The notes below the pieces were generated by a model. That model saw nothing but the letters and a program-made list of their open reading frames with translations. It was not told the origin of the DNA and made no database searches. A program made the translations under genes and the position numbers. From positions 1 to 64,000 of IMG/VR virus record IMGVR_UViG_3300010049_000009: a stretch of 64,000 nucleotides of DNA, one strand, 5' to 3'. The stretch comes from a virus. Its lineage: Duplodnaviria; Heunggongvirae; Uroviricota; Caudoviricetes. The first letter of the stretch is position 1. Each line of letters opens with the position of its first letter. Shown here one piece after another: positions 777 through 52,966 of this stretch.

Positions 777-791
777 TAAATACCCAATAAA

Positions 792-2568: not shown

Positions 2569-2802
2569 ATTGGATAAAAAAGTTGTTAATTTATTAGACA
2601 GTAAAAATTTTAATTAAAATAAATGCAAATGGATAATATGTTCAAAGTAGTGGCAGTAGAGGATGACGGTAAGGTTAATAACCACTATTATCCCACGTTA
2701 AAAACAGCGATAAATGCTGCTGACGCAATTAGCGAGTTCTTTTCAGATGCTGTCGAGGTATTTGATAAAGAAGGCAAGCGTGTTCATTATTAGTGATGGT
2801 AC

Positions 2803-3341: not shown

Positions 3342-3343
3342 AT

Positions 3344-3583
3344 ATGCACTATTTTTGTATTAATGATACGTTGTATCGAATGACCGAAAAAAACTTTAAA
3401 CGGTTATGTAAGAAATATCCTATGAAAAAGTATCCGAATGATTATGAAACGGAACAATCATATATTCATAAAATAGGACAAGCCACTAGGTTTGATGAAG
3501 GTTCTACTCATGAGGAATGTTTAGATTGGATTATTGATAATTCAAAATTAGTGAATCAAGTTGTTCATGTTCATAATTATTAA
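3344..3583 (+). CDS. hypothetical protein (start moved to the internal ATG, MHYFCIN...)
   Basis: the track ORF 3287-3583 overlaps the upstream gene; the internal Met follows the upstream stop. Confidence 0.4.
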   Translation: MHYFCINDTLYRMTEKNFKRLCKKYPMKKYPNDYETEQSYIHKIGQATRFDEGSTHEECLDWIIDNSKLVNQVVHVHNY

Positions 3584-4853: not shown

Positions 4854-4868
4854 ATACTCAAATGAGTA
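4854..4868. promoter_or_regulatory. palindrome ATACTCAAATGAGTA copy 3, between convergent genes
   Basis: identical 15-mer. Confidence 0.35.
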
Positions 4869-4871
4869 CTA

Positions 4872-5165
4872 TTACAATTTGAGTGTTGAACCTAGTGAAC
4901 GTTTTATTGTGGATACTTCTTGATCGTTTAGAGCGATTTCACCCCTAACTTTTTTGGATAGGAGGCTTCGAGCGGTGTCTTCATCCATACCCGACCACAC
5001 GGTTTTAATTAAAGCACGAGCAACTTCTGCTTGATTTATACCAGGTTGTTTAAGTTGGGCAATAAGTTTTGCTCTTTCACCGGTTGCTTCACCTTCGGTT
5101 AGTGCTTGTCTAACCTTACTTTCTATGATTTGTTTTAATTGACTTTCTGTTATTTGAACTTTCAT
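4872..5165 (-). CDS. hypothetical protein (start at MKVQITE...)
   Basis: ATG at 5163-5165 lies 15 nt downstream of the conserved CTATTTATATTAAA motif; the track extends further to 5231. Confidence 0.4.
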   Translation of the reverse strand: MKVQITESQLKQIIESKVRQALTEGEATGERAKLIAQLKQPGINQAEVARALIKTVWSGMDEDTARSLLSKKVRGEIALNDQEVSTIKRSLGSTLKL

Positions 5166-5631: not shown

Positions 5632-5706
5632 AGCGGTGTATTTCAATGGTTAGAATGACGGTCTCCAAAACCGTAGATGGGAGTTCGAGTCTCTCCACCG
5701 CTGCCA
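5632..5706 (+). tRNA. trnW: tRNA-Trp (anticodon CCA), with encoded 3' CCA
   Basis: acceptor stem AGCGGTG/CACCGCT, anticodon stem ACGGT/ACCGT, loop CTCCAAA, T-arm GGGAG-TTCGAGT-CTCTC, all folded by eye. Confidence 0.8.
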
Positions 5707-19224: not shown

Positions 19225-20049
19225 TTATTTAAGGTTTTCAGTTTCGAGTTGTAATATTTCTTTCTCCAACGATGCTGTTATTTTCATAAGTGTTTTTAAA
19301 TAAAACGTGTTTATAATCCACTTGTTTAAGTGTCGCCACCTGCGCTTATCCCAATCAGCCAATGGTGTATAAAACCCCAATAGTGTGGAACGATTATAAG
19401 CAGTAGGTGTATTAAGAAATGATTTACGAAAAGATAAAAAACTCCGCAATTCCCTAAACATAGCATGAAACACGGTGGCGCGACAAATTGTTCCACCACA
19501 ATTTTTATCACGATACAATCCCTTGAATTTTATCCAACGTTTTAAGACTTCACCCATATAATTTGCTTTGTATTTAAACTCTGCAACAATACCCCAATTG
19601 AAGAAAAACCATTTTGGTTCAATCCTAAACAAATGGTCTCTTACACCCATTTTGTATATTTCAACATTCGACTGACGGCGAATAGAATTAAACGGTGCCG
19701 GATTTTGACCAATAGCAAGATTACTCCAATCGCCAAAGAACATTTTGTTTTTACGCTCACCCCAATCACCCATAAAATAATAATCTCCGTAAGTGTCATA
19801 TTGATAATCTGCTGAAGGACAATCTGTCATTGGACAACGATACATGTCTTCTATCGAACCATTCCCATTAGGATCAGTTACATGATCTAACGACGTTTCA
19901 ACCCGTGCCTCACCAACATATTCAAGCCGCACACGAGGTCCACAAAACGCACAACGAAAATCTTCTTTCTGACCATCTATTCTATTATCACATACCCCAT
20001 AGGTTGGGGATTCATTCATACTTTCCATTTTCATATTTATTTTAAACAT
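19225..20049 (-). CDS. hypothetical Cys-rich protein (274 aa)
   Basis: ORF. Confidence 0.5.
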   Translation of the reverse strand: MFKINMKMESMNESPTYGVCDNRIDGQKEDFRCAFCGPRVRLEYVGEARVETSLDHVTDPNGNGSIEDMYRCPMTDCPSADYQYDTYGDYYFMGDWGERKNKMFFGDWSNLAIGQNPAPFNSIRRQSNVEIYKMGVRDHLFRIEPKWFFFNWGIVAEFKYKANYMGEVLKRWIKFKGLYRDKNCGGTICRATVFHAMFRELRSFLSFRKSFLNTPTAYNRSTLLGFYTPLADWDKRRWRHLNKWIINTFYLKTLMKITASLEKEILQLETENLK

Positions 20050-24029: not shown

Positions 24030-25730
24030 ATGTACAAAAATAATTATGCAACCATAGAAGAGAGTATAGGTAGGATGCAGAAACTTATGGGCAACACCGC
24101 GCCGGTGGTTCGCACGGAACAAGTGCTTGGAAACATTGAAAAGGTGTATAGGGGTCATGATAATAATGCTTATGCTATTGTAAAAGAAAATTCACACTAC
24201 TATTTAAAAGTATCAGGAAAAACATCAGATTTGTCTTTGAACGATTTTGAATATTTGGGTGGAAACAGACAATGTAAAAATCTGTATGAATATAGTTCCT
24301 TTGCCAATGCAGAGAAGTTCCTTAAAGAACATTTAATTACCTTGAACCAACAGGTTAACAACCAAGAATTACTTAAAGAAGAAGCAAAACGTGTTGATAC
24401 CAACCTTGAAAAAACCGCTACTTCAACAGCAATGCGCAGTGAAATAGACCGTATTCGTGAGATTATGGAAAACACCAATAGAATTAATAAAGGTGGTAGT
24501 GCAAGTGTTGTTAAGAAATCTCTAAACGAAAAAGTAAATATCGCTAACGAAGAGAGTGGTATGATTACCGATAGTGTGAACGAAGAACCCGTAAACGAAA
24601 TTATTAGCAATGCTATTAAAAATGTTGCTAGTGGAATTGGTAATATGGGTGCCGGTGTTATTCACGGTCAAACAACAGAAGGAAGCGAAGAACCTGTGAA
24701 TGAATTTGTCAGTAACGCCATAAAAAACGTTGCTAGTGGAATTGGTAATATGGGTGCCGGTGTTATTCACGGTCAAACAACAGAAGGAAGCGAAGACGAC
24801 GAACTTGAACTCGAATTAGACGGTGATGACGAATTTGATTTAGACGACGAATTTGACAGCGAAGAAGAAAATGAATTTGAAGAAGATTTGGAAGACGAAT
24901 TTGACGGTGAAGAAGACGAAGAAATGTCAATGCTAAATGCTTTAATGGATAAGTTGAATAGTATTGAAGAAAAATTAGACGGTGCTGACAGCGAAGAAGG
25001 TGAATTTGAAATAGATTTAGACGACGATAGCGAAGGTGAATTTGATTTAGACGAATGTGGTGTAGTTGGTGAAGGTGACGATATTGAAGAAGCGTTTCTA
25101 TCTGACAAACTCAACGCAAAATATGGTACATTACCAAAACAAGCCGATGAAGCAAAAGCAAATTTTGAAAGAGTTATCACATCTTGGTTGGAAAGAGACC
25201 GACCTGGTATGAGTCCAACAGAATTAGCAAACGCACTTAAAGCAAAAATAGACGAAATAGTTGCCGAAGAAGAATCAGACGATATTGATAACCCACTGTT
25301 TGATGACCCCGATGACAGAATGACGGGTACTATGGGTGAAGCCAATATGAAAAGAATGGTTCAAAAAATTATTAAAGAAACTATTAGTACAATCGCTTCT
25401 GATGTAACAAAAGATAATTTTGGATATACTAACGCCGAACCGGATAGTAAAGGTAGAACGAGTTTTGATAACCCAAAAGCCGAAAAAGAAATTGGTTTAG
25501 GTAATCACCACGAAGATACACTTGATCAAATTAAATCAACAACAGGAAATCATTCTAAACCTTCAACAGGTAGTACACCAGCAGGTAAAGTTGCTAACGT
25601 TATTGACGATATAGAAGTTGAAATCGTTGATTGTTGTGAGTCAAAAAACAAAAAACCTCTCTACATTGTAGAACAAGACGGAACAGTTATTGGTAAAATT
25701 GCACGTGAAACGTTGAAGAAGCGTAAATAA
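24030..25730 (+). CDS. acidic protein (566 aa) with a 35-aa tandem duplication, possible scaffold or internal virion protein
   Basis: EPVNE(II/FV)SNAIKNVASGIGNMGAGVIHGQTTEGSE x2, then a D/E-rich block. Confidence 0.55.
   Translation: MYKNNYATIEESIGRMQKLMGNTAPVVRTEQVLGNIEKVYRGHDNNAYAIVKENSHYYLKVSGKTSDLSLNDFEYLGGNRQCKNLYEYSSFANAEKFLKEHLITLNQQVNNQELLKEEAKRVDTNLEKTATSTAMRSEIDRIREIMENTNRINKGGSASVVKKSLNEKVNIANEESGMITDSVNEEPVNEIISNAIKNVASGIGNMGAGVIHGQTTEGSEEPVNEFVSNAIKNVASGIGNMGAGVIHGQTTEGSEDDELELELDGDDEFDLDDEFDSEEENEFEEDLEDEFDGEEDEEMSMLNALMDKLNSIEEKLDGADSEEGEFEIDLDDDSEGEFDLDECGVVGEGDDIEEAFLSDKLNAKYGTLPKQADEAKANFERVITSWLERDRPGMSPTELANALKAKIDEIVAEEESDDIDNPLFDDPDDRMTGTMGEANMKRMVQKIIKETISTIASDVTKDNFGYTNAEPDSKGRTSFDNPKAEKEIGLGNHHEDTLDQIKSTTGNHSKPSTGSTPAGKVANVIDDIEVEIVDCCESKNKKPLYIVEQDGTVIGKIARETLKKRK
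24582..24791 (+). repeat. 2 x 105-bp in-frame tandem duplication inside the CDS
   Basis: near-identical DNA copies starting at 24582 and 24687. Confidence 0.8.
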
Positions 25731-26178: not shown

Positions 26179-26389
26179 AATAGGAATGGAAGAAGAGGTT
26201 TTGTGTAAGATTAATCAACTTATTATGGAGAAAACCGGTAAAAGCATTGAGGATTTAGAATATGCGCCATTACCGGAAGAGGATCATAGATACAACACAC
26301 AGCGTTTTGGTAGAGCGGAAGATATTCTAACACCAAGACAAGCAAATGAAAAAATACAAAAATTTCTATCATTAAAATTTTAAAAAGAA

Positions 26390-26421
26390 AAATCCCATTC
26401 AAACTCGAATGGGATTTTTTA
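26390..26421. terminator. bidirectional rho-independent terminator (AAATCCCATTC...GAATGGGATTTTTTATTT)
   Basis: between convergent genes. Confidence 0.65.
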
Positions 26422-26525: not shown

Positions 26526-28442
26526 TTAATTAACTTCTTCCGCTTCCTGTGGTCCACCGGCGGTTGCTTTACTGAAATCAAAATCACCAAATGGGTTGTC
26601 CGCACCCATATTAGCAAACGGATTGCTTGGGTTTCCACCACCAGGGTTATTTGCCGCATACAATCTTGTTGAAATCGGTATCCACACCTCATCCATTTTC
26701 TTTGCTAACTCATCCACCTTTTCGTGGTTTTCGGTTTTAATAACTTCCTTCAATTCGTCAATCACCGTTTGGATTTTTATTTTTTCCTCATCGGTAATTT
26801 TATCACCCATTTCGTCAATTTGTTTTTCGGTTGAGAAAATTATGGAGTCCGCCTTATTCATAGCTAAAACCTTTTCCATTTTTTTCTTATCCGCTTCGGC
26901 GTTATCTTCTGCTTCACGTTTCATTCTTTCAACCTCTTCTGACGATAATCCTGATGAAGATTGAATGGTGATATGTTGTTCTTTGTTTGTCCCTTTATCA
27001 GTTGCTTTAACAGACATAATACCGTTGGCATCAATACTAAATGTTACCTCTATTTGTGGTGTACCGCGCCTTGCCGGTGGAATACCATCTAAATCAAATT
27101 GACCTAATAGTTTATTATCATTGAAAGAGGGGCGTTCACCTTGGGCTACGCGAATGGTTACTGCCGGTTGGTTATCAACTGCTGTGCTGAAAATTTGTGA
27201 TTTTGAAACAGGGATTGTTGTGTTCGCATCAATAAGTTTTGTGAACACACTACCCATAGTTTCGATACCTAATGAAAGTGGTGTGACATCTAAAAGTAGA
27301 ACGTCTTGTGTTTCACCACTTAACACAGACCCTTGAACTGCTGCTCCAAGGGCAACAACTTGGTCGGGATGTACACTTTTGTTTGGTTTTCTCCCAAAAA
27401 ACTTCTCAACAGCCTCTTGTACAGCGGGAATACGAGTACTACCACCAACAAGAATTACTTCGTCAATATCACTTGTGGTTATACCTGCGCTTTTCAATGC
27501 TGATTTACAAGGTTCGATTGTGCGTTTAACGATAGTTTCTATCATTTGTTCAAATTTCGCACGTGTAATCGTTTGCACGAGGTGTTTTGGTACACCGTCA
27601 ACCGGCATAATGTATGGAAGATTTATTTCTGTTTGAACTGAACTTGACAACTCAATTTTCGCCTTCTCAGCGGCTTCTTTCAGGCGTTGTAATGCCATTG
27701 GGTCTTTTTTCAAATCAATGGCGTATTCCTTATTAAATTCGTCAGCAAGATAATTTATAATGACATGGTCAATATCATCACCCCCCAACCTTGTATCGCC
27801 GTCAGTGGATTTGACTTCAAACACACCACCACCGAGTTCAAGTATTGATATATCGAATGTACCCCCACCGAAGTCAAATACAGCAATTTTCATATCGTCT
27901 TTCTTATCTAAACCAAAAGCCAATGCTGCTGCCGTAGGTTCATTAATTATACGAGCGACTTCTAATCCGGCTATTTCACCCGCTTCTTTGGTTGCTTGAC
28001 GCTGTGAATCGGAAAAATAAGCCGGTACAGTGATAACTGCTTTAACCACCTCTGTTCCAAGAAAATCTTCCGCTGTTTTCCGCATTTTTTGCAGGATTAT
28101 TGCTGAAATTTCTTGTGGGGAATATTCTTTATTTTCAATTTTAACACGAATAGTGTCATTAGTACCACTTACAAGTTCGTATGCAACTTTATCCTTTTCG
28201 TTGTTGATTGAACTATATTTTTCACCCATAAAACGCTTTATGGAATAAACCGTTTTTGTTGGATTAGTTACCGATTGGCGTTTCGCGGAATCTCCCACAA
28301 CACGCTCACCGTCTTTTATAAAACCAACAATTGAGGGGGTGGTGTCCTTCCCCTCACCGTTTGGAATAACCATTGGCTTACCACCTTCTACTACTGAAAC
28401 ACAAGAGTTACTTGTGCCTAAATCTATACCTATTATTTTCAT
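26526..28442 (-). CDS. dnaK: Hsp70 chaperone DnaK
   Basis: [19 protein letters not shown]..., DLGGGTFD, full-length 638 aa with an acidic C-terminus. Confidence 0.9.
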
Positions 28443-28459
28443 ATTAAATATTTATTTTT

Positions 28460-28927
28460 TCAATTTATATCAATTTTTCTAATTGTGGGTTGTTCGGTAG
28501 AACTCCACATTTTATCTATAACAATCTCCAAAATACCATCCACAATATGTGAAGTAGTAGTATCTAAATCACAATCTTTTGGAATGGTAAATGTTTCTTT
28601 ACCGGGTTTTGTGTTGAAATGAAAACCATTATCACGTGGTTTATACTCCACAGTTAGAGTATAATCTTGTAATGTGATTTCAATATCATTTTTTGATAAT
28701 CCTGGAACCAACAATTCAATCGAATGAGTGTGTGCATCACTCTCGATATGACAGTTTGATCTACCTATACCGTATGATACAGTATAACTTGGTGGCGCAA
28801 TTATGTCTTGCGCACGTGGGAGAATACCCCACCATGGGCTTGTATCCTCACTTGGTAAAAAATCACCCACATGAAATCTATATGGATAATTACCTGTACC
28901 TGTTCTTATGTTACAACAACTTTTCAT
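28460..28927 (-). CDS. small heat-shock protein (Hsp20/alpha-crystallin-like)
   Basis: alpha-crystallin-like core IELLVPGLSKNDIEITLQDYTLTVEYKPRD...FTIPKDCDLD...DGILEIVIDK. Confidence 0.5.
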   Translation of the reverse strand: MKSCCNIRTGTGNYPYRFHVGDFLPSEDTSPWWGILPRAQDIIAPPSYTVSYGIGRSNCHIESDAHTHSIELLVPGLSKNDIEITLQDYTLTVEYKPRDNGFHFNTKPGKETFTIPKDCDLDTTTSHIVDGILEIVIDKMWSSTEQPTIRKIDIN

Positions 28928-28993
28928 ATTATATAATTATTATTATTATTTATTTTTACATTTACCACTATTCAAAGAGTGTGCCAAAGGATT

Positions 28994-29044
28994 TTTGTCA
29001 CAAAAAAAGATGTTTTTTGTGACAAAATATGACAGATTGTCATA
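28994..29044. promoter_or_regulatory. two adjacent palindromes, TTTGTCACAAAAAA-N5-TTTTTTGTGACAAA (14-bp arms) and TATGACA-GAT-TGTCATA, upstream of the sHsp-DnaK operon and overlapping the infA stop
   Basis: perfect inverted repeats sharing a TGTCA half-site. Confidence 0.45.
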
Positions 29045-29291
29045 CTTGTCCTTCATCTACTGACACCTTTGCAGTATTGAACCGGCGTGAAATACGACCT
29101 CTTGTCAGATCGTATGGCGACATTTCTATTTCGACTTTATCACCAACTAAAATTTTAACGTAGTTTTTGCGTATTTTACCTGATATTACACACAGCACCA
29201 TGTGTTCGTTTTCCAACTCAACGCGAAAGGTGGCGTTACCCAACGCTTCTGTAACTATACCTGTTTGGATTATAAGATTCTTTTTACCCAT
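29040..29291 (-). CDS. infA: translation initiation factor IF-1 homologue
   Basis: [57 protein letters not shown] is roughly 60% identical to the recalled E. coli IF-1 ([57 protein letters not shown]). Confidence 0.85.
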
Positions 29292-29652
29292 TTTCTTTTT
29301 TTATAAATTGTTTTAAATATTTCATTTCGATATGTTTCTTAATAATATCCCCATGACATGACTTCGGCGCACAAAAACAACCAAGACATATGTTTTCACC
29401 ACGTATATACATATCATATATTTCGTCTATTTTCTCTCTAAATGTGGGGTTATTTTCATAGTTTTCAAGAAAATATTCTTGGTATTTTGCAATTGCGGTT
29501 TCTCTATCTGATACCGTGTATTGCGCTAACGTTCCTGTTTTGGTACTATATGGATTACCCAATATGTTATTTTCTCTGTTTCTACCTATGTAGAAATACA
29601 CACCATCGTTTGGGGTGTGTTTATTAATGTTTATTACTTCTATACTTCCCAC
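29284..29652 (-). CDS. hypothetical protein ([14 protein letters not shown] motif)
   Basis: ORF. Confidence 0.45.
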
Positions 29653-34933: not shown

Positions 34934-34986
34934 ATCATTTTTTCTATAAATATACAGTATTTTAAAATAACATTGAATTATATGTG

Positions 34987-35067
34987 AGCGGATAGTGGGA
35001 CTCGAACCCACACGCCTTTCGGCACTAGTTCCTAAGACTAGCGCGTATACCATTCCGCCATATCCGC
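34987..35067 (-). tRNA. tRNA-Leu (anticodon TAG), type II with long variable arm
   Basis: acceptor GCGGATA/TATCCGC; anticodon stem CTAGT/ACTAG, loop CTTAGGA; folded by eye. Confidence 0.7.
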
Positions 35068-35133
35068 ATATTATCACAAATATTTGCACTGTTATCATAG
35101 GTATTGATAATAGTGCAATTTTATTTGATAATG

Positions 35134-35206
35134 TATGAGTGGAGGGATTCGAACCCCCGATTTCGTGGTCCCAAACCACGCGCCATACCAACTTGACCAC
35201 ACCCAT
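35134..35206 (-). tRNA. tRNA-Pro (anticodon TGG), with an A1-U72 pair
   Basis: anticodon stem CGTGG/CCACG, loop TTTGGGA; T-arm GGGGG-TTCGAAT-CCCTC. Confidence 0.65.
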
Positions 35207-35213
35207 GTTGTTG

Positions 35214-35285
35214 ATGTTCCACCAGGACTTGAACCTGGACAAACAGATTCAAAATCTGTTGTGCTAACCATTACACAATGGAACA
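35214..35285 (-). tRNA. tRNA-Gln (anticodon TTG)
   Basis: acceptor TGTTCCA/TGGAACA (U1-A72 typical of Gln); anticodon stem ACAGA/TCTGT, loop TTTTGAA. Confidence 0.7.
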
Positions 35286-35291
35286 ATGTAG

Positions 35292-35364
35292 CTGGGATAG
35301 TAGGTCACGATCCTACGACCTGCGGATTAACAGTCCGATGCTCTACCAACTGAGCTATATCCCA
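35292..35364 (-). tRNA. tRNA-Asn (anticodon GTT)
   Basis: acceptor TGGGATA/TATCCCA; D-arm GCTC-AGTTGGTA-GAGC; anticodon loop CTGTTAA. Confidence 0.7.
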
Positions 35365-35370
35365 ATTTTG

Positions 35371-35443
35371 CGGTCGATGTGGGATTCGAACCCCTCCTCT
35401 ACCGTGACAGGGTAACGTGCTAACCATTACACTACACCGACCA
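35371..35443 (-). tRNA. tRNA-Asp (anticodon GTC); the T-stem pairs poorly
   Basis: anticodon stem TTACC/GGTAG, loop CTGTCAC (classic Asp loop); acceptor GGTCGGT/ATCGACC; only a 3-bp T-stem found by eye. Confidence 0.55.
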
Positions 35444-35448
35444 TTTTG

Positions 35449-35524
35449 GGTGAGAGAGGAGAATCGAACCCCCGACCTTCTGATCCACAATCAGACGCTC
35501 TAACCTACCTGAGCTACCCTCACC
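35449..35524 (-). tRNA. tRNA-His (anticodon GTG) with encoded G-1 opposite C73 (bacterial type)
   Basis: 5' G-GTGAGGG; anticodon stem TCTGA/TCAGA, loop TTGTGGA. Confidence 0.7.
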
Positions 35525-35532
35525 ATATATTG

Positions 35533-35605
35533 TAGTCGGTACGGGACTCGAACCCGTTTCTCCACCTTGAAAGGGTGGTGTCCTGACCAATTAGACGAAC
35601 CGACC
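35533..35605 (-). tRNA. tRNA-Glu (anticodon TTC)
   Basis: near-identical to the recalled E. coli tRNA-Glu core (TTCGTCTA..GGACACCACCCTTTCAAGGTGG); T-arm ACGGG-TTCGAGT-CCCGT. Confidence 0.7.
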
Positions 35606-35614
35606 ATATTTTTG

Positions 35615-35699
35615 TGGAAAGGGTAGGATTCGAACCTACGAAAGTCCGAAGACAGCGGAGTTACAGTCCGCCCCAATTGACCAACTATGGGACCTTTCC
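35615..35699 (-). tRNA. tRNA-Tyr (anticodon GTA), type II (bacterial style)
   Basis: acceptor GGAAAGG/CCTTTCC; anticodon stem GCGGA/TCCGC, loop CTGTAAC; long variable arm. Confidence 0.7.
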
Positions 35700-35745
35700 A
35701 AACATTTTATCCAAAATAATATTCACATATTATTCCGATCTTATG

Positions 35746-35818
<73 letters not shown>

Positions 35819-36101: not shown

Positions 36102-38081
36102 TTAATTAACCAAAATTTTTTCACTATTTTCTAAATATTCATCAATTCGTACTATTAAACGTTCAAATTCTTCATTTATTACAGGAGAACCTGTTAAAGT
36201 TGGTTTATTTTGTACTACAATATTTTCTGTGATAATTTTTTCTTTGTTATGTTTTTTATTTTCCATTGGTGCTGCTTCTGCTGCCCCAGCCTCTGCGCCA
36301 CCCACATCGGGTGCACCACCTTCGGCAGGTGCTTCGCCACCACCTTCTTCTGCGCCGCCGCCCATATCATCCATACCCATATCGCCACCTGGTGCACCTC
36401 CACCGCCGCCACCGGCAGCCGCTTCTGCTTGTCCTATTTCAGTAGCACCATAATTATATTCTGCATTTGCTTCACCATATAATGTATCAACTCTATCAAA
36501 AAGACCTGTTTTCTTAATAATTTGTTGTGTTAATACTAATTCGGTTGCCAATGCTTTTTCAAGTCGAAGGTCTTCCAATATCTGATTAATTTCGCTTTCA
36601 GGGAATTTCATAATTTCCCTTAACGCTTTTCTCCACGAATATACTGCTAATCCACCACCCGGATCTGAAAGAGCATCTTTACAAACAAGAATCTTCTTCT
36701 GCATTTCTTCAATACGTTGAATTTCTGCTTGTGTTGAAGGATTGTTCATTGTTATTGTAAAGTTATTCAGTTCGTCTGTAAAACCTAACAAATAAAGATG
36801 TATGATAGCAATTTTATTTAGTTCAAGAATAACACATTGTTGAATACGTGTAATTATTTTGGCAAATCTTACGTCAGTCATTGATAGTGTTCTACCTTCG
36901 GCTGGTGATGCTTCAAAATTTAAAAATACCTTTGGAATACCCAAGGCGGTGAGCATTTGCAAATGAAGATATTCTAAAATATCTTTAAATTTTTCAAATG
37001 CTGAACTACCACTTAACGCCTCGATTTTACTTGCGTCATTGTTACCTCTAACCGGGATAAAATAATCGTCTAAGGGTGACATTACGTTTTTAGATAAGTC
37101 AATATGACCTGTTTGTGGGTCAATTCGGGAAGTTCTTTTAAATCTGTTTGCTATTTCTTGTACGTATGGTTCAATGTCAGCATCGTCAATTAATCCAACG
37201 TCTATTTTGTATATTAATCTATCGTATGCTCTCTCCATCATATGTATTAACATATGATCTTCCGCCATCATTAATCTTCGCCATTGTTGTCTTGCACCAT
37301 TAATATATGAACAACCATAGGGGGCGGCAATCATATCATTCATTAGTCTGAAATGTCCCACTTGCCAACTATGAAATGTTTGTGGTGCACCTGCGCCAAT
37401 ATATTGAAAATGTGGTTGAAGTTGTGATACGTCATTGTTGGATACACTACCAGCGTTTTGTGGCATAACACCGTAGGGGTGTAAACTTTGAAATCTTCTC
37501 ATTTCGACCACAGGTACGGAGTGCCACGCCAATATACCGTTTTTAGATTGAATGTTTAACAGTTTATATTCGTTACCATATTTTACCATAGTACGGACTA
37601 GGGGTAATAGTTCCAAATGTATTTGAAGTCTATTAACGAAAAGGTCTTCTAAAATAAACTTAATTCTATCTGATTTTGAGGTGATATTAATTAGTGAACC
37701 GTCAGGTCCTAAAGTACATGTTTCTGATGCTACCAAATTTAAAGCCTGATATATTTCAGGTCTTTGGCACATATTTTCAATATCACGATACATTAAGTCA
37801 ACATAACCCATTGACTGTAAATCACGCATATTAGTACGTGCTTGGGTATGTATCCACGTTGAACTTAACCATTTGTCTTGTTTACCTTGAAGTAGTGCCG
37901 CATCATATTCCGCTTTATTCTTTGTTTTAAGAATAATATCGTTATTGTAATCATAGGTGCTCGGGTGAGATGACTGAACAGTGGTGTTGTACTGCCCTTT
38001 ATCCCACCCTGTTAAAGTTTTTATCAGTGCGCTATATATACTTATAGGTTTTTCTTGTTTCTTATCCATTATCGAATACAT
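36102..38081 (-). CDS. candidate portal (T4 gp20-like) or other large head protein, with a Gly/acidic C-terminal tail
   Basis: 659 aa, no NTP-binding motif, located beside putative head/scaffold genes; the family could not be verified by eye. Confidence 0.3.
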   Translation of the reverse strand: MYSIMDKKQEKPISIYSALIKTLTGWDKGQYNTTVQSSHPSTYDYNNDIILKTKNKAEYDAALLQGKQDKWLSSTWIHTQARTNMRDLQSMGYVDLMYRDIENMCQRPEIYQALNLVASETCTLGPDGSLINITSKSDRIKFILEDLFVNRLQIHLELLPLVRTMVKYGNEYKLLNIQSKNGILAWHSVPVVEMRRFQSLHPYGVMPQNAGSVSNNDVSQLQPHFQYIGAGAPQTFHSWQVGHFRLMNDMIAAPYGCSYINGARQQWRRLMMAEDHMLIHMMERAYDRLIYKIDVGLIDDADIEPYVQEIANRFKRTSRIDPQTGHIDLSKNVMSPLDDYFIPVRGNNDASKIEALSGSSAFEKFKDILEYLHLQMLTALGIPKVFLNFEASPAEGRTLSMTDVRFAKIITRIQQCVILELNKIAIIHLYLLGFTDELNNFTITMNNPSTQAEIQRIEEMQKKILVCKDALSDPGGGLAVYSWRKALREIMKFPESEINQILEDLRLEKALATELVLTQQIIKKTGLFDRVDTLYGEANAEYNYGATEIGQAEAAAGGGGGGAPGGDMGMDDMGGGAEEGGGEAPAEGGAPDVGGAEAGAAEAAPMENKKHNKEKIITENIVVQNKPTLTGSPVINEEFERLIVRIDEYLENSEKILVN

Positions 38082-39470: not shown

Positions 39471-40409
39471 ATGGCAAAATATAATAGAAAAATATATTCA
39501 TACAAAGGATATAAAATAAAGGAAAACTTGGAAACAGGTGGTTTCGATATTTTTAAACCTTCGTGGGACCCGAACTATCCGGTTTTTGAAGAATTACCGG
39601 ATTTGGAACACGCAAAGGTGTGGATCGAATCTGATAAAAAATCAGACGATGAGGAAAGAATTATGAAGGAAAACGCTGTCAGGAATTATGCACAAAGATT
39701 CAAAATAATATGCGAATATAATTTTAATACCCGACTTGAAGAGGAAGGTGAAGGAGACCCCAACGCCGACCCTAACGCCGCACCACCCGCCGATCCCAAT
39801 GCAGCACCACCAGCTGACGCTGGTGTGGAAGGTGATCCAAATGCAGCACCACCGGCAGACCCCAACGCTGCACCACCAACAGACGCTGGTGTGGAAGGTG
39901 ATCCAAATGCTATGCCAATGGAAGGGGAAGGTGATTTTGAGGATGTTGAAATGGATGAAGGTGGACTACAACCTGACGACAACGTAATAGACGTGTCTGA
40001 AATTACCGGTAATCAAGAACAGACCAATAGTGAAATGGAAGAGTTGAAAAGTAAATTTGAACAATTGGTTCAACTCAATGATAGAGTTACACAAACATTG
40101 GAAAAATTGGCACAGTCGGCAGAAAGTAGTCAGAGTGCCATTCAATCTGTAAAAGATGATTTAGCACAACGTGTTCCAACTGAAATTGAAAAGTTACAAG
40201 CAAGACCAACACAAAGCGGTCCCTTTGAACACACAGTAGAAGATTATTGGAAAAACAGACCGGGTGGTGATAAATATGATATTTACCCCGATACCGAAGA
40301 AGATGGTGAACCTGAATATGTGTTGCGCAAATCTGACATTGAAAATATCAACCCACAATCGGTTTATAACTCATTCAACCAAAAATTAAGAGATATTATC
40401 AATTTTTAA
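39471..40409 (+). CDS. protein with tandem GDPNAAPPADPNAAPP(A/T)DAGVE repeats plus a coiled-coil C-terminus
   Basis: 63-bp DNA repeats around 39757-39900. Confidence 0.5.
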   Translation: MAKYNRKIYSYKGYKIKENLETGGFDIFKPSWDPNYPVFEELPDLEHAKVWIESDKKSDDEERIMKENAVRNYAQRFKIICEYNFNTRLEEEGEGDPNADPNAAPPADPNAAPPADAGVEGDPNAAPPADPNAAPPTDAGVEGDPNAMPMEGEGDFEDVEMDEGGLQPDDNVIDVSEITGNQEQTNSEMEELKSKFEQLVQLNDRVTQTLEKLAQSAESSQSAIQSVKDDLAQRVPTEIEKLQARPTQSGPFEHTVEDYWKNRPGGDKYDIYPDTEEDGEPEYVLRKSDIENINPQSVYNSFNQKLRDIINF

Positions 40410-43792: not shown

Positions 43793-46700
43793 TTAATTTA
43801 TGTTTGGAACATTTCGGACTCTTGCAACCCTATTAATTGCTGTTTTATCACCAGGTTCTTCATCACATTGGTCGCCTGTACCGGCAGATATTTGCATAAC
43901 ACCAATACCACACATTATCGGTTTTCCGAAATCTATATCAATAATAGTGTTAGTTGGAATTAGGTTTTCCAAATACGGCATAATGTTATTTATGAAAAAA
44001 TATTCTTCTGAACCGTCAATGGAATCATATCTGAATGTTATATTTTTACAATTTACAATTCTATAAAAATCTATTGCGCTTGCCAACCTATCATCAATAT
44101 GTCGGGTGTTTGCTGTTCTATCCTCTCGAAGAATGGGTTTACATTCCCTGAATCTAACATCATCTATGTATGTTCTGTAAATAGAATATTCTTTATTTAT
44201 CATTAATTTATCTTCCCAATGTTTTGTTGAAACATTGTCTATAACAACCATATCAACCGCCGTTTCATATACATTTTTTGTGGGTACAAACCCCGTATCT
44301 ATTTTTCTTCCATACCCCTCATTTCTATAAACCGGCCAACAACCTTTATTGTCTATATTACCTACTAATCTAAAACCAACATTTTCCAATTGGTAATATT
44401 GGGGGTTGTTCCATATACATTCAGGGGAGTTGCTTAAAGTGTAATTAAACAAACCGTTTAAATTTCTAACATCACCCTTCTTGTTACCTTCATTAAGTTG
44501 TGGTGTAATAGAATCACCGTTTACATCATTAATTCTATATCCAATATGTTGTAAATAACTGTTTCCGTAATCATATCCCAATGTACCGCCTGTATGGGGA
44601 TTGTTACCTTCATTTGTTGTGGTTATTTGAAAATATGCTTGAACATTGATTGTAACCGACACGCCCGATGTTTCTCCTGTTATTGTGTATAACCCCTCTG
44701 TGTCGGCGTGGGTTAAGTTTGCCCACCCTTCTTTATTCATTGCGTTGTGTGCATCTACCAATACCCAATAATTGGAAAAATTAGATTTATTCGCCGTTGG
44801 TTTCCACTCGTCATCATTTCTTACAAATACAAGTGTACCTTCTTCATTACCTAATCTTATGATTAAGTTTTTTAAATCTTCTATTGTTTCAACCAATCTT
44901 AATTCTGCTTGGGTGTCTTGATACCAACCACCAAATTGTTGATAATACAAACGCTCTGTGTTACCATGAAAGAATGGTACAGCGTCATACCGCCTAACAT
45001 ATCCTATTCCATTACATTGAAAACAAACCGCTCTATCAGTAACAATATATCCTTTACCATCACATTTTTTACAAATAACACTCATATCACCTTTGAAATA
45101 TTTTGTCATTGGTAATATGTGTTGTTCTTCTTGATCCCCCTGTTCTTTATCACTTATGTTATAATCTTCACCATTTTCAGTGTATGGGGTTTTTATGTTT
45201 AATGATATAATATTTTTAACAGGATAGAAATATACTTGGGCAGCTCCACGTGGAACGTAAGTGTTATTATTCACCCCACTAACCCCAACAAATTCTTGAC
45301 CACTTTGGTAATTAACACCATTATATTCTACATAATCAGCGTTTGTTGCATTGCGGGCATACACATCGTATATGTAACCAGGTCTTATACTACCTGTTGG
45401 TGCAAGCACTTCATCGGGTATCATATTATCACTTTCCGGTCCACTTGTACCATAACGACTTCCTGTTGCAACATATACGACCTCATTTAATCCCCACTTT
45501 TTTCGATCTACACCAAACAGGTTCATTAACATTTCAACACCGTGTTTTGTTCCCTTCCAAGAAGCAATGTGTGATGAATTGAGTAATAATCTTCGATAAA
45601 ATTCATTCTCAATATCAGTCGCATTATATTTCTGCTGCCATCCACCATATAATTGGTCGGTTTGTATGTCTATGTTATCAAAATTAACAACCGATATGGG
45701 TTTCCACCCGGCAATATCAACCTCATTTTTCAGAAGAGCATCGGGGTAATTATCTAATTGATTATATGTTAAATTATTGATAACTTCAATACCATGAATA
45801 TATTTTTTCAGTTCGTCATAACTTCTACCATATAATCTTAATATCTTATTAAGATATGTTCCACCTACAATATGTGCTTGTGCCAACGCTTCGTCTTCAA
45901 TTCTATTCAAAGACCAATCAAGATTTTTAATACTATCGTGTGTAAGCATACGATAAATGTTATCACATTTCATAGTATCCATATATTCGGCAGACTCTAA
46001 TAATGTGTTTATCATTCTTTGATAACTCACGGATTTCAAATCAATGTTCCACCCATCCTCTGTATCTAATGTAAAACTTTCATTGGCGTACATTCCGGTA
46101 TATGTTCCGTCATTATCTTTGGAAGGTGTGTAAAAAGTTGAAGTGTATTTTGGAACAGTGTTTCGATTTAATATTACTGTCTGAAAATCCGATAGATTAT
46201 TAAAAAATTCAGTAACATATTTTTCTTTTGGTTTAATGTGAAACCCTAATATACCCTCAGCGTTATTTTGTATCCCTGTTATATCAGCAACATAATTGAT
46301 TAGTTCGCAAGGATTGTGTTCGTCATCGTAGTTGAATGATATTGTTATTGTGAAAAAATCAGCATTAGTTCTCAAACGACAAGTGTTTGGAACAACAGGT
46401 GTGTTTAGTGTGGATAAAACTCTAATTGTAATTGTATCCAATAATCGCATTGGTGGGTGATAATCTTTTTTGAATATTTCTTCCAATTCCTCTGAATCAA
46501 AATCCTCATCCGTTGTTACAATTAGACTGTTATTATCAAGTGTGAATATTCCATTCGATGGTTCATATTCTTCGTGAAGAAAACCATCATCAAAAACATT
46601 TGTCCGACCAACATATCCAACAAATCCTGTTCTTTTTATATAAACGTATCTGTAATCCGTATCTACTCGCTGTATATCCCTCTTACATTCAGTTAAACGA

Positions 46701-47605
46701 ATACCACCACTTTGTTCAACACAATTAACAATTGTTTGTGGTTGTGATATTGTTTCAATAACCTCATATTTGTTGTGGTTTTGTTGAAATACCCTAATAT
46801 CGTCTATATGTGGGTCTTCCTTTGATGTAAAAATATTGATATTAAATGGGTTATTTACTTCATAATAATATTCAGTAATATTATTTACAACATAACTCTT
46901 TTTTTCTAAAAATAATGAAGCAGGAAAGGTATTAACAATCCCAATAAAATTTGCTTTTATTAGTTCAACAAGATTACCATATAACGCAAAACTCGTGAGG
47001 TTTTTAGTATCTAATTTTAATTTCCAATCTTGTTCAACAATATTCGGTATTTCTTCTATATCACCTATACTACCGTCAGCATTGAAAGCAACCAATTCTT
47101 GGTGTGTCCAATACAAGTCATTCAACTCGATTAAATTAGTTGTTGAAATCCCATAACCTTTACCCGCATTAATTATTTTTAATCCATTGTTTGTGACAAC
47201 ACCATTATTAACACCTATGACTTCCACCAAACCATTGACCGCACCTAATACAATAATACTAAATCTATCACCTTCTTTATAACCCACACCACCTTCGTTA
47301 ATTCTATAACCTGTTATACCACCCGTTGGATTAACACTTGTTATTGTTATGAAACAACCATATCCTGATTTGGGGGGTATCCAATTTCCGTTTGAGTGAA
47401 CTAAGGCGTTATTGTTTTGACCATCGTTGAATTGTACTTTAAAATTTCCAAGGTTAACACCATCAATGTAATTTGAAAAGAGTGGTGAATTTTGTATTGT
47501 ACTCCACGAAGTGTCATAAATAGCACCAAACCCCTCACCTGATAATGGTTGATGATATTGGCGGTTTGTGTATAACGTTTTTTGTATTACTTTATTAGAT
47601 GCCAT
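43793..47605 (-). CDS. large virion structural protein (1270 aa, fibre/baseplate-like) with a DnaJ-type CxxCxGxG x2 zinc finger
   Basis: CKKCDGKGY...CFQCNGIGY; repeated GxGY beta-modules shared with neighbouring large proteins. Confidence 0.6.
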   Translation of the reverse strand: MASNKVIQKTLYTNRQYHQPLSGEGFGAIYDTSWSTIQNSPLFSNYIDGVNLGNFKVQFNDGQNNNALVHSNGNWIPPKSGYGCFITITSVNPTGGITGYRINEGGVGYKEGDRFSIIVLGAVNGLVEVIGVNNGVVTNNGLKIINAGKGYGISTTNLIELNDLYWTHQELVAFNADGSIGDIEEIPNIVEQDWKLKLDTKNLTSFALYGNLVELIKANFIGIVNTFPASLFLEKKSYVVNNITEYYYEVNNPFNINIFTSKEDPHIDDIRVFQQNHNKYEVIETISQPQTIVNCVEQSGGIRLTECKRDIQRVDTDYRYVYIKRTGFVGYVGRTNVFDDGFLHEEYEPSNGIFTLDNNSLIVTTDEDFDSEELEEIFKKDYHPPMRLLDTITIRVLSTLNTPVVPNTCRLRTNADFFTITISFNYDDEHNPCELINYVADITGIQNNAEGILGFHIKPKEKYVTEFFNNLSDFQTVILNRNTVPKYTSTFYTPSKDNDGTYTGMYANESFTLDTEDGWNIDLKSVSYQRMINTLLESAEYMDTMKCDNIYRMLTHDSIKNLDWSLNRIEDEALAQAHIVGGTYLNKILRLYGRSYDELKKYIHGIEVINNLTYNQLDNYPDALLKNEVDIAGWKPISVVNFDNIDIQTDQLYGGWQQKYNATDIENEFYRRLLLNSSHIASWKGTKHGVEMLMNLFGVDRKKWGLNEVVYVATGSRYGTSGPESDNMIPDEVLAPTGSIRPGYIYDVYARNATNADYVEYNGVNYQSGQEFVGVSGVNNNTYVPRGAAQVYFYPVKNIISLNIKTPYTENGEDYNISDKEQGDQEEQHILPMTKYFKGDMSVICKKCDGKGYIVTDRAVCFQCNGIGYVRRYDAVPFFHGNTERLYYQQFGGWYQDTQAELRLVETIEDLKNLIIRLGNEEGTLVFVRNDDEWKPTANKSNFSNYWVLVDAHNAMNKEGWANLTHADTEGLYTITGETSGVSVTINVQAYFQITTTNEGNNPHTGGTLGYDYGNSYLQHIGYRINDVNGDSITPQLNEGNKKGDVRNLNGLFNYTLSNSPECIWNNPQYYQLENVGFRLVGNIDNKGCWPVYRNEGYGRKIDTGFVPTKNVYETAVDMVVIDNVSTKHWEDKLMINKEYSIYRTYIDDVRFRECKPILREDRTANTRHIDDRLASAIDFYRIVNCKNITFRYDSIDGSEEYFFINNIMPYLENLIPTNTIIDIDFGKPIMCGIGVMQISAGTGDQCDEEPGDKTAINRVARVRNVPNIN

Positions 47606-47610: not shown

Positions 47611-48531
47611 TTAATGAACCATTGTATTATTCCACGTTTCAGATTTATCTATTATATCCTCCCTATTTTTACGAAGCGTGTATGTTGGTTTGTTCGTATA
47701 AGCGTCTTTAACTTGTACTATTTCGGTTTGAGATAAAATAGTGTGGTCAGGATTATATGTTGTCATTAATCCCTTATCAAGATTTAATGCTTGATCCCCA
47801 CCTAACATTGTTGCCAACATAGATAAGTCGGTATCCACCATTTCAATTTCTATTAATTGAGAGTTGAATTTAGTATTAACTAGTGCAATTTGTTCACCGG
47901 TTGAACCGATGTATGGTAAAACACTTGCTTTTACCTGTGAAGCGGAACTTGGTGATAAAGTACAGAAAATAAGATTTCCATTATCCGTTAATCTATATGA
48001 TAACGATTTCATTGTTGTTGTGGATAAGTTATCCATTACTGCTTCACAACGATTGTTAGAGGTTATTGTTTTAAAATAATCTTGTTGTTGCCCACTGTTG
48101 TTATAATATTCTACACGCCAACCGCTCAACGCCATATTAACCCTCTGTGCAGCAGATAAACCACCCATTTCTGAACCCTTGAGTACAATTCCTCTTACAT
48201 CGGGTAATGCTGATAAAACAGCGGGTGCATCCTCAATAATACAATAATACCGTTTCGGGGTAAGTAAAACCGTATACACACCCTTTTTATTAAAAATCTT
48301 CATTGGTAGATTAAGAGTGTATACACCACTCAACTCATTATTGACCGGTTCATCACCTATTTCGTATGTACTTTTATTAAACCACTCACTCGGAGTACCA
48401 ACCTTTTTAAAGTCATCCCCGAAAGTCGCGTCAGTTCCGTTTCTACCAGGTCTATAATGATAAAATATATCAATATCCGTGTAAATATCAATATTTGCTA
48501 ATCTATTCGTACCTGTAATTCCTACTGCCAT
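47611..48531 (-). CDS. structural protein (306 aa)
   Basis: ORF in the structural operon. Confidence 0.55.
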   Translation of the reverse strand: MAVGITGTNRLANIDIYTDIDIFYHYRPGRNGTDATFGDDFKKVGTPSEWFNKSTYEIGDEPVNNELSGVYTLNLPMKIFNKKGVYTVLLTPKRYYCIIEDAPAVLSALPDVRGIVLKGSEMGGLSAAQRVNMALSGWRVEYYNNSGQQQDYFKTITSNNRCEAVMDNLSTTTMKSLSYRLTDNGNLIFCTLSPSSASQVKASVLPYIGSTGEQIALVNTKFNSQLIEIEMVDTDLSMLATMLGGDQALNLDKGLMTTYNPDHTILSQTEIVQVKDAYTNKPTYTLRKNREDIIDKSETWNNTMVH

Positions 48532-48578
48532 TTTAATTTAATTCTTTATTATAAATAATTGTTTTTCTATTTTTAGTA

Positions 48579-50606
48579 TCAACGCCCCTCTTCTTCTTCT
48601 TTGTATGCGCGCATTAATTCATCATTTACTTCAACACCCAATAACGCACCTTCGTCAATAAACGGTTCTTCATCAACCGGTTTGGTGTTGTCAAACACAC
48701 GCCAAAACGCACCATTATTATATGTTAACATTTGACTGAATGTTTTTATTTCACCCATTGCCATGTGCCTATCCTGTGAATAAACTATTCCCCTTTCAAC
48801 ACTAATATTGTTTTCAATTCTCGGTTTTTCGGTTACACCAAATAAATATTCTTCTTTAATCAAAGGGGTGTTTACCCACATTTCGTTATTAGAGTGTGGT
48901 GGGGGTGTTCCTGTTGGTGTAACAAAAACATTACTATCTCTCGCAACACTATCTTCATATCTGAATGAAAATGGTGTGTGTTCAGCAACCGTTGTTATTA
49001 CATAATCACCCCACTCCAAATCAACACCACTTATTACTTCCGAAGTAATTGTGTCAGTATATAAAATCCCTGTACCTACTTGTGGTTGTGTACCCACAAA
49101 TATAGTGTTTATTCTATATGTGTATATTATTTCCCTTTTAACTATTTCACCACTGATTGTGAGTTCATCAACCATATCTGATAAATTCAAACCAAGAGTA
49201 GGTGTTGGAATACTTACAATGTTATTATTTGCATTATAATATCTTGGTCCAACTCGATCTATAATGCGACTTGCATAATATTGTAATCCTTCAATTTGTG
49301 ATATGTTGCGATTGGTACTTAATTTATATTTTCCCTCAACATCAAAAAAGTTAATATCCCCAATATTGCTCACCAACCCTTTCAGTGTGTATAATAAACT
49401 ACCCGTGTTATTGGATACCGCTCTTCTTGGTGATATACATCTGTTGTCTACGGTTAATTTCCAATGAACAAATTCATTATTAACAATTCTAAATCTCTCA
49501 AAATAACCTGTTGTTGTATTTTTAACAGTATCGTCAAAATAAATAATATTCTCAATATGGTTAAAATCACCTGCGTAATAACCTTCGTTATTAACTACTT
49601 TTAAGATATATAATTGGTCATCATATATAACCACATCATTCAAATAATATCTTTGACCCGGAACCCATTCTTTTGCTGTGGAAGTGAACACACCCATATC
49701 ATCAATATCACCGTTTAATAAAATTGGTAATTTTATTATTGGTGGTTCAGGATCATATTCATAAATTGGATAATCTTTCGCTTCTTTTCTAACTTTATTA
49801 ACACAAGGTGAATTTAATTCGTAAAATGTCATTGCCCTTGCAAACACATAATCATGACACTGACTTTTAATATCACTGTGAATATCATATTCCGTAATTC
49901 TTAACACCGAATTTAAAAAGGTGGCGGGTGCTTCGTTTAAGATAAATTCATAAATTAAATCAATGATTTGTCCTAATTTATCTTCTGTTACAATGTAATT
50001 TTTAATAAAATTATTAACATATCTACCAAACGCACCGCTTGTACTAAATATGTTTAATATGGTTGAATTGTTAAATATACGTATGGGAAACCCCGTTCTT
50101 ATTTGTGTAATAAAATAATCTAAAAAACAGTCGGGCATTGGGGTATATGTTAATGCTTCAAAAACATATACTGTATTATTATTTATATCCTTTTCTTCTC
50201 TGAAATCGTCAGTAAGTAAAAAATGAAGGTATGGGTATATCCTATCACCCTCTTTGTAATACCAATTTTCACCAATATCAATGAACTGCGATAAATTATC
50301 TTGCCCAACACTACTACTATTATCAACGCAAAGACTACAAATATATTGACTTAATGTTTGAAATTCATGTAAATCTTTGAACAACCTTTTACAATCACCG
50401 AATGATAAGTATGTAAATTTGTAATATGGGTTATCAGGTAATTCAAATATCATTTTAATATTAGCAGCAATAGTATAATCACCTCTTTTATCAGTATTAT
50501 TTAGACGCGGTCGAGGCGGAATAGGTACATCCCAAACCCACAATTTGGGGTTCAGACTATAGTTCTTAAACTCATTTAAACTAATATTTTTAATTATCTT
50601 ATTCAT
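48579..50606 (-). CDS. large structural protein (675 aa)
   Basis: ORF; stop/start overlap with the next gene. Confidence 0.6.
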   Translation of the reverse strand: MNKIIKNISLNEFKNYSLNPKLWVWDVPIPPRPRLNNTDKRGDYTIAANIKMIFELPDNPYYKFTYLSFGDCKRLFKDLHEFQTLSQYICSLCVDNSSSVGQDNLSQFIDIGENWYYKEGDRIYPYLHFLLTDDFREEKDINNNTVYVFEALTYTPMPDCFLDYFITQIRTGFPIRIFNNSTILNIFSTSGAFGRYVNNFIKNYIVTEDKLGQIIDLIYEFILNEAPATFLNSVLRITEYDIHSDIKSQCHDYVFARAMTFYELNSPCVNKVRKEAKDYPIYEYDPEPPIIKLPILLNGDIDDMGVFTSTAKEWVPGQRYYLNDVVIYDDQLYILKVVNNEGYYAGDFNHIENIIYFDDTVKNTTTGYFERFRIVNNEFVHWKLTVDNRCISPRRAVSNNTGSLLYTLKGLVSNIGDINFFDVEGKYKLSTNRNISQIEGLQYYASRIIDRVGPRYYNANNNIVSIPTPTLGLNLSDMVDELTISGEIVKREIIYTYRINTIFVGTQPQVGTGILYTDTITSEVISGVDLEWGDYVITTVAEHTPFSFRYEDSVARDSNVFVTPTGTPPPHSNNEMWVNTPLIKEEYLFGVTEKPRIENNISVERGIVYSQDRHMAMGEIKTFSQMLTYNNGAFWRVFDNTKPVDEEPFIDEGALLGVEVNDELMRAYKEEEEGR

Positions 50607-52960: not shown

Positions 52961-52966
52961 TTCTAA

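Follow-up and report, generated by a model that had tools for sequence, protein, structure and literature searches.

We analysed a stretch of 64,000 nucleotides from a Caudoviricetes record (IMG/VR virus record IMGVR_UViG_3300010049_000009, positions 1 to 64,000; hereafter the window), in which infA, a gene for a small heat-shock protein (sHsp) and dnaK follow one another on the minus strand. Neighbouring genes mostly touch or overlap in this region, but a gap of 112 bp lies between infA and the sHsp gene, and this spacer is quite probably a phage-borne copy of a heat-shock control module of the Bacteroidota. The window holds the parts that define the module, namely a TGACA-N3-TGTCA palindrome in phase with a promoter box of the -24/-12 type (gap 43 nt) and downstream chaperone genes for sHsp and DnaK. 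The same elements are conserved, helically phased and strongly associated with chaperone genes in Bacteroidota genomes as well as in viral contigs. An earlier description of the window, made without database searches (the sequence-only reading), had recognised the two palindromes of the spacer and overlooked the promoter TGGCAC-N5-TTGA at 28986-28971. It had also proposed a search for the palindromes in other phage and host genomes, and the TGACA-N3-TGTCA palindrome was found upstream of chaperone genes in both.

For the genome scan, which covered one genome per species, we used the pattern TGACA-N3-TGTCA followed after a gap of 8-38 nt (31 possible values) by TGGCAC-N5-TTGW. At least 120 matches were found, against a rough chance expectation of a few dozen for the whole collection at equal base frequencies. 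Among the genome matches listed, Bacteroidota taxa were named in all but 3 of 80 titles. Over all the genome matches listed, the first downstream gene encoded DnaK in 61 cases, GroES in 20, HtpG in 14 and ClpB in 2, and the rest included GrpE and sHsp. The gap between palindrome and promoter measured 11-13 nt in 70 of the 120 genome matches listed, 21-24 nt in 32 and 31-36 nt in 15, while 3 were off phase. A scan of the viral contigs of IMG/VR also returned at least 120 matches, and those listed fell into the same three gap classes (79, 11 and 22), with 8 off phase. The classes of about 12, 23 and 33-34 nt are one helical turn apart per step (12 + about 10.5n nt). Therefore, a protein bound to the palindrome has to be turned towards the complex at the -24/-12 box. 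Some contigs (L286, L306) carry tandem palindromes two turns apart, which suggests oligomeric binding.

Among the viral matches listed, 102 in-phase downstream open reading frames (ORFs) were compared with Pfam, and 59 matched HSP20, 16 HSP70, 9 the UVR motif (UvrB/UvrC), 2 Cpn60, 2 Cpn10 and 2 the Sigma-70 family. The many short and diverse sHsp genes that follow the module in viral contigs show that phage chaperone genes are commonly preceded by a heat-shock control region of the host, and that this phage is not peculiar in that respect. The nine UVR-motif ORFs preceded by the module may include the ORFs of about 150 aa in L330, L340 and L351 (MKNRKNFF...). The genes for sigma-70-family sigma factors lie behind the module in L268 (684-1478) and L297 (1-453), so that some phage regulators, and not only chaperones, may be tied to it.

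Relatives of the phage were selected by protein homology of sHsp or DnaK and not by motif, which gave nine further independent loci and, with the window, ten phage loci (the window, L036, L033, L004, L117, L116, L119, L035, L039, L043). In the metagenome search a two-sequence profile found nothing and a four-sequence profile succeeded. All ten loci have the box TGG(C/T)(A/G)Y-N5-(T/C)TG(A/T) at a distance of 25-60 nt ahead of the start codon of sHsp or DnaK, and TGTCA/TGACA half-sites lie upstream of it in all ten, usually as TGACA-N3-TGTCA. The sequence-only reading had named the absence of the palindromes from related phages as a result that would count against it. The outcome was mixed: the long repeat was found in the closest relative (L036) only, and the 13-bp palindrome or its half-sites were found in all relatives. 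The sHsp of L036 is 46% identical to that of the window, yet the promoter boxes of both are nearly identical. Moreover, the long repeat of L036 shows two differences over 35 bp that mirror each other (A:T to T:A at the innermost arm position), and the loop CATCT as well as the 9-nt distance to TGGCAC are kept. On the bacterial side, dnaK of Nonlabens tegetincola is preceded by TGACA-TCC-TGTCA, 12 nt and TGGCAC-AAACA-TTGA, and dnaK of a Bacteroidetes metagenome-assembled genome by TGACA-N6-TGTCA, 12 nt and TGGCAC-AAGGC-TTGA.

The spacing within the promoter box was the same in all 12 homology-selected loci (10 phage, 2 bacterial dnaK), and its GG-N10-G layout, with GG at -25/-24 and G at -13, is that of a sigma-54 promoter. 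In its passages on chaperone genes, a 2025 survey describes predicted sigma-54 promoters as enriched at Bacteroidota GroEL, IbpA, GroES, GrpE, DnaJ and DnaK genes, with the highest values in Flavobacteriia (PMC12316311), and rpoN is present in almost all Bacteroidetes genomes surveyed elsewhere (PMC3372290). Dependence of the box on sigma-54 is likely. We consider it unlikely that the box is read instead by a sigma-70-family factor or a dedicated transcription factor, with the region forming a composite operator of a sigma-A promoter. Such a factor would fit the lack of a -12 C in the 12 homology-selected loci as well as the TTGAC of the host examples, which resembles a -35 hexamer, and the sigma-54 reading of these Bacteroidota promoters is itself a prediction. 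However, neither a sigma-A -7 box (TAnnTTTG) nor any other conserved column at a fixed distance was found downstream of TTGW in 111 host and 110 viral sites, which argues that the -24/-12-type box is the promoter itself and not an upstream site of another promoter; a sigma-A promoter was rejected for lack of this -7 box. The invariant GG-N10-G spacing together with the TGGCAC box is a sigma-54 signature, and the independent published survey, in the same passages, assigns these Bacteroidota genes to sigma-54 (PMC12316311).

A scan with the sigma-70 consensus, which is irrelevant for Bacteroidota promoters, gave no more sites than shuffled sequence. Median distances from TTGW to the start codon were 51 nt for hosts and 41 nt for viral contigs. 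Within the window alone TGGCAY-N5-TTG was not significant (2 found vs 0.87 expected). The second copy of the box, TGGCATAGCATTTG at 39904-39917 on the minus strand, is identical to the 14-mer promoter box of L004, lies inside a 312-aa plus-strand ORF without a palindrome upstream and is probably due to chance. One canonical TTGC site, lacking a palindrome, was seen in the host locus L205; such sites are too few to judge the frequency of TTGC. With a putative transcription start some 12 nt downstream of the -12 element, near 28960, a short leader would be left. An RNA thermometer (ROSE, fourU) was rejected for this leader, which has no Rfam match at E<=1 and folds at 0 kcal/mol.

Upstream of the box in the window, palindrome 1 contributes half-sites 51 and 43 nt from the TGG and the long inverted repeat contributes two more at 33 and 9 nt; all four fit a 10.5-bp helical grid. 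Palindrome 1 shares a TGTCA half-site with the long repeat and overlaps the infA TGA stop codon (29040-29042), just as the sequence-only reading had stated. The half-sites of the long repeat, TGTCAC (29024-29019) and GTGACA (29001-28996) on the minus strand, are joined by A6/T7 tracts. Described earlier as a perfect inverted repeat with 14-bp arms, it is indeed perfect and its arms measure 15 bp, which makes it the longest perfect inverted repeat of the window, and it beat all 30 first-order Markov simulations, whose maximum was 13 bp. L039 and L043 share the spacing TGTCAC-N17-GTGACA with the window, and their arms are not complementary. This indicates that the half-sites and their geometry are what selection preserves. 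In the window and L036 the arms show extra complementarity, a lineage-specific elaboration which the half-sites do not fully explain, and the exact long-palindrome pattern had no match in viral contigs.

The palindromes thus appear to be protein-binding regulatory DNA of a host type rather than a product of chance. As had been claimed, they are neither CIRCE nor HAIR. In a mismatch-tolerant scan of the window the sole match to CIRCE/HrcA (TTAGCACTC-N9-GAGTGCTAA, <=5 mismatches) was located at 4863-4889, far from the operon, and HAIR/HspR (CTTGAGT-N7-ACTCAAG) had no match near the operon at <=3 mismatches. The RheA operator of Streptomyces hsp18 (TGTCATC-N5-GATGACA), which controls an sHsp gene, had no match in the spacer at <=3 mismatches and has the TGTCA pentamer alone in common with it. 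A one-mismatch copy of palindrome 1, GGACAATCTGTCA at 19815-19831, shares 11 contiguous bases with it and lies inside the ORF 19225-20049 with no promoter box close by.

A role of the two hairpins in RNA, at the 3' end of the infA transcript, is quite unlikely, be it termination, insulation or 3' stabilisation that would shield the sHsp-dnaK promoter from read-through. The adjacent hairpins fold at -20.7 kcal/mol (z = -6.2), and L036 retains both stems, with one compensatory swap in the long stem and, in the first stem, a G-U pair that is tolerated on the coding strand only. However, no U-tract follows either hairpin and neither was called in the terminator scan; the clear terminators of this phage have G+C-rich stems and T-runs, whereas this stem is A/T-rich with a GUCAC core and a 3' flank of AAUCCUUUGG. 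Moreover, the gene upstream of Nonlabens dnaK is divergent, so that in this case the palindrome cannot serve an upstream transcript as its 3'-end structure; the 13-bp palindrome is likewise present in the divergent spacer of L043, where no transcript ends. The distance to the promoter is helically phased, and phasing is a property of DNA. Besides, neither L039 nor L043 has the stem, their spacer being not self-complementary, and yet both retain half-sites at the N17 spacing. The earlier suggestion of an AT-rich terminator for infA accordingly failed, given the missing U-tract, the negative scan, the element in divergent regions (L121, L043) and the conservation of half-sites instead of a stem.

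The sequence-only reading had left open whether the palindromes bind a regulator of the phage or of the host. That they are regulatory DNA sites stands, and with a host-type element upstream of Bacteroidota chaperone genes a host regulator is far likelier than a phage-specific one. Operators of a phage-encoded regulator, such as a repressor that times chaperone expression in infection, are very improbable: the long perfect repeat is shared only by this phage and L036, its closest relative, and giant phages encode many DNA-binding proteins while the window covers 64 of about 368 kb, but the same half-sites, spacing and phasing are found at chaperone genes of bacterial chromosomes across the phylum, and the TGACA-N3-TGTCA core has exactly one copy in the 64 kb, which means that it is no general operator of the phage.

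A copy of the host heat-shock module could work as follows. Host RNA polymerase with sigma-54 (RpoN) would bind TGGCAC-N5-TTGA at 28986-28971, and transcription from near 28960 would run through the short unstructured leader, the sHsp gene and dnaK to end at 26388-26419. The TGTCA/TGACA half-sites of both palindromes would be bound by a putative heat-shock regulator of the host, and because these sites stand a whole number of helical turns away from the -24 box, the bound protein would face the polymerase. We would expect this regulator to be an activator (an enhancer-binding protein or a co-activator) in preference to a repressor. The phage chaperones would then be made when the host senses proteotoxic stress, for example from a flood of large phage proteins; that is, they are probably switched on by the stress circuit of the host itself. 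A repressor is a serious contender. An activator is modestly favoured, because the palindrome seems to work from -45, -56, -66, -76 and further, always on the same helical face. Activators in contact with the polymerase typically behave in this way, whereas a repressor that occludes the promoter is harder to fit with it.

Several points weigh against this interpretation. The -12 position is A in the window and A or T in all 12 homology-selected loci, never the canonical C, and sigma-54 recognition of such a -12 A/T is plausible. No RpoN-box or GAFTGA signature of an enhancer-binding protein was found in the window, the host loci or the related loci fetched earlier, and two weak GAFTGA/RpoN-box-type matches in viral loci fall in unrelated low-complexity sequence. 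Dyad symmetry, tandem copies and phasing fit a sigma-54 enhancer site, whereas the position does not: the palindrome has its centre near -45 in the majority of host genes, nearer than enhancers of the classical kind, which leaves room for a repressor or a co-factor. The transcription start and the expression of sHsp-dnaK are predictions. The perfect long repeat is kept in one relative only, and the half-site model alone does not account for its A/T arms. Both scan patterns were derived from observed sequences, while downstream genes, taxa and phasing were not imposed. Finally, some IMG/VR contigs may be fragments of host genomes.

Similar promoters have been predicted for the hosts. In the 2025 survey, as far as its chaperone passages go, the sigma-54 heat-shock promoters of Bacteroidota resemble the one described here in that a -24/-12 promoter stands directly upstream of DnaK- and sHsp-class genes, in the phylum that also holds the best cellular homologues of the phage DnaK (PMC12316311). 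They differ in that ours is phage-borne, with TTGA instead of TTGC as the -12 box, and in the phased TGACA-N3-TGTCA palindrome, which does not appear in the chaperone and promoter-consensus passages of that survey. The evidence for sigma-54 control given in these passages is computational (PMC12316311). No description of a phased TGACA-N3-TGTCA at Bacteroidota heat-shock genes, or of phage copies, was found in the searchable literature. The closest known system is this computationally predicted sigma-54 heat-shock regulon, from which the locus differs in its phage location, the -12 A, the phased 13-bp palindrome and the 35-bp repeat built from the same half-sites.

Sigma-54 activators such as NtrC, NifA and LuxO bind short dyad upstream activating sequences ahead of -24/-12 promoters, often in tandem about two turns apart and in a manner that depends on the helix face. 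The LuxO site reads TTGCA-N3-TGCAA, and classical enhancers are located at -80 to -150. The palindromes resemble these enhancers as dyad sites upstream of -24/-12 and share the 5-3-5 layout of the LuxO site, whereas their commonest position of about -45 is much closer to the promoter. Many Bacteroidetes activators reportedly have no DNA-binding domain (PMC3372290).

Palindromes upstream of dnaK, groE or sHsp genes are also known from CIRCE/HrcA, HAIR/HspR and RheA, and the RheA half-site contains TGTCA as well. However, the sequences and spacings here are different, with a TGACA-N3-TGTCA orientation, and whereas the repressor operators lie over a sigma-70 promoter, the sites here are upstream of -24/-12 at variable, phased distances. 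RprY of Porphyromonas gingivalis is a response regulator, and its family usually binds direct repeats. In electrophoretic mobility shift assays it bound promoter fragments from groES, clpB and dnaK, though not from htpG, no motif was defined, and the heat-shock promoters of P. gingivalis were described as lacking CIRCE (PMC3646045). It is similar as a Bacteroidota regulator that acts on groES, clpB and dnaK promoters and differs in not binding htpG, which carries the module in many genomes here.

Chaperones encoded by phages include T4 gp31, GroEL of phage EL and Hsp20 of cyanophages, and the E. coli sHsp gene ibpB has a sigma-54 promoter. Our case is similar to the former as chaperone genes carried by a phage and to the latter as an sHsp gene with a sigma-54-type promoter. 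It differs from the known phage chaperones in that the stress-responsive promoter and operator of the host phylum are retained, an arrangement that recurs in more than 100 viral contigs.

It is possible, with chances we put slightly below even, that the module marks an uncharacterised phylum-wide heat-shock circuit of the Bacteroidota which phages have repeatedly captured or copied for their own chaperones. Such a circuit would consist of a sigma-54-type promoter with a non-canonical -12 A/T and a phased TGACA-N3-TGTCA regulator site. Phage genes for sHsp, DnaK, GroES/EL and occasionally sigma factors would be driven by it, and the supply of chaperones would track the folding stress caused by infection. 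The long palindrome flanked by A-tracts could be a high-affinity or bent variant which titrates the host regulator at phage copy number and thereby perturbs the heat-shock response of the host. Heat-shock regulation in Bacteroidota is poorly understood; heat-shock promoters of this phylum are devoid of CIRCE, and sigma-54 control is supported by computation only. The phased 13-bp palindrome next to a -24/-12 box would offer both a DNA bait and a regulon signature for finding the regulator and for testing sigma-54 dependence. The chaperone genes of phages of this phylum would not simply be constitutive cargo, since they carry a stress-responsive control region of the host in well over 100 viral contigs. 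This recurrence suggests a coupling between the production of phage chaperones and the folding load of infection. Besides, the module could mark uncultured phages as having Bacteroidota hosts.

Table 1. Features of the chaperone operon and its control region in the window, with gene orders of the related phage loci
Feature	Position	Strand	Details
Bidirectional terminator-like hairpin	26388-26419	both	terminator scan: 14 pairs, 4 G-C, T-runs on either side; also in the inverted-repeat list
dnaK (Hsp70), 638 aa	26526-28442	minus	Pfam HSP70, E 3e-245, model positions 1-598 of 599
sHsp (alpha-crystallin domain), 155 aa	28460-28927	minus	Pfam HSP20, E 2e-11; 17 nt upstream of dnaK
5' leader, AU-rich, predicted unstructured	28928-28960	minus	minimum free energy 0 kcal/mol
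-24/-12 (sigma-54-type) promoter	28986-28971	minus	TGGCAC-ACTCT-TTGA(A); 9 nt downstream of half-site GTGACA
Perfect inverted repeat, 15-bp arms, 5-nt loop	28993-29007 and 29013-29027		centre near -50
Palindrome 1, TATGACAGATTGTCATA	29028-29044		core TGACA-ATC-TGTCA, 29030-29042; centre near -76
infA (translation initiation factor IF-1), 83 aa	29040-29291	minus	Pfam eIF-1a, E 3e-23; upstream neighbour, outside the module
DUF4326 gene	29284-29652	minus	Pfam
Locus L036			infA-sHsp
Locus L033			infA-sHsp-DUF723-DnaK
Locus L117			infA-sHsp-DnaK
Locus L116			sHsp-DUF723-ORF, contig end there
Loci L004, L119			Nudix-sHsp...DnaK
Locus L035			DnaK without sHsp; DnaJ nearby
Loci L039, L043			divergent ClpB-like and sHsp

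The description of the operon itself agreed with the sequence-only reading. Pfam hidden Markov model searches confirmed a full-length HSP70 and an HSP20 protein encoded in the same orientation on the minus strand. The bidirectional terminator predicted past dnaK was recovered by the terminator scan at 26388-26419 and ends both this operon and a convergent plus-strand gene (stop at 26383). Likewise, no homologue of DnaJ or GrpE was detected in the window at E<=1 (phmmer, with one phage DnaJ and two Bacteroidota GrpE sequences as queries). The phage DnaK is 66-70% identical to its best cellular homologues, which are DnaK proteins of Flavobacteriales and Bacteroidia, and 75-80% identical to its relatives in the phage clade. 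The translated sHsp ends in an I-x-I motif (...RKIDIN; IDI), which is IEI in relatives. Its family is tiny, with a handful of relatives of 32-46% identity, and DnaK is linked to it in 6 of their 7 loci, the seventh (L036) stopping inside its sHsp gene. No relative of the sHsp was found in IMG/VR by single-sequence search or in the cultured-phage collection by tblastn. The order DUF4326-infA-sHsp-dnaK is repeated in L033 and L117.

Some of the related loci carry additional genes. A gene with a DUF723/CapR domain, possibly a mobile endonuclease, is located directly upstream of DnaK in three relatives (L033, 2913-3935; L116, 687-1694; L032, 145-1152). It stands between sHsp and DnaK in L033 and directly after sHsp in L116, and the sHsp promoter is the sole promoter visible upstream in these loci. 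In L043 a ClpB/ClpC-like AAA+ protein of 671 aa (779-2794, minus strand) is encoded divergently from the sHsp (2980-3351, plus strand). The shared spacer contains TGACA-ATA-TGTCAC-N17-GTGACA and the -24/-12 box, and a KTSC-domain gene follows. L035 (Logan SRR10512953, an 86-kb contig; the same DnaK is present on a contig of about 360 kb) is giant-phage-like; its DnaK gene directly follows the module, DnaJ is encoded four genes downstream, and genes for S-adenosylmethionine synthetase and nicotinate phosphoribosyltransferase (NAPRTase) lie upstream.

The window belongs to a giant phage, as identical proteins are found on contigs of up to 368 kb, and DNA similarity to cultured or deposited phages is confined to the conserved dnaK core. 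For the 1270-aa protein (43793-47605, minus strand) a DnaJ-type zinc finger had been proposed. CxxCxGxG does occur twice, at aa 845 and 861 (16 residues apart), and the protein has no Pfam match at E<=0.001, the DnaJ zinc-finger model included. The five large ORFs next to it (47611-58412) are also without a Pfam match. From 58499 to 64000 on the plus strand, where no ORF of at least 90 aa had been listed, a single giant ORF of at least 1834 aa starts near 58499 and runs past the end of the window. The plus-strand gene 24030-25730 encodes a very acidic protein of 566 aa without a Pfam match, which has long D/E-rich runs and in which about 36 aa are duplicated in tandem almost exactly (EPVNE(I/F)(I/V)SNAIKNVASGIGNMGAGVIHGQTTEGSE).

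The window has 33% G+C, a T4-like portal gene and ten tRNA genes. Nine of the tRNA genes form an array on the minus strand (34986-35818; Leu, Pro, Gln, Asn, Asp, His, Glu, Tyr, Thr), which the portal gene (36102-38081) adjoins, and a lone tRNA-Trp is located on the plus strand at 5632-5706.

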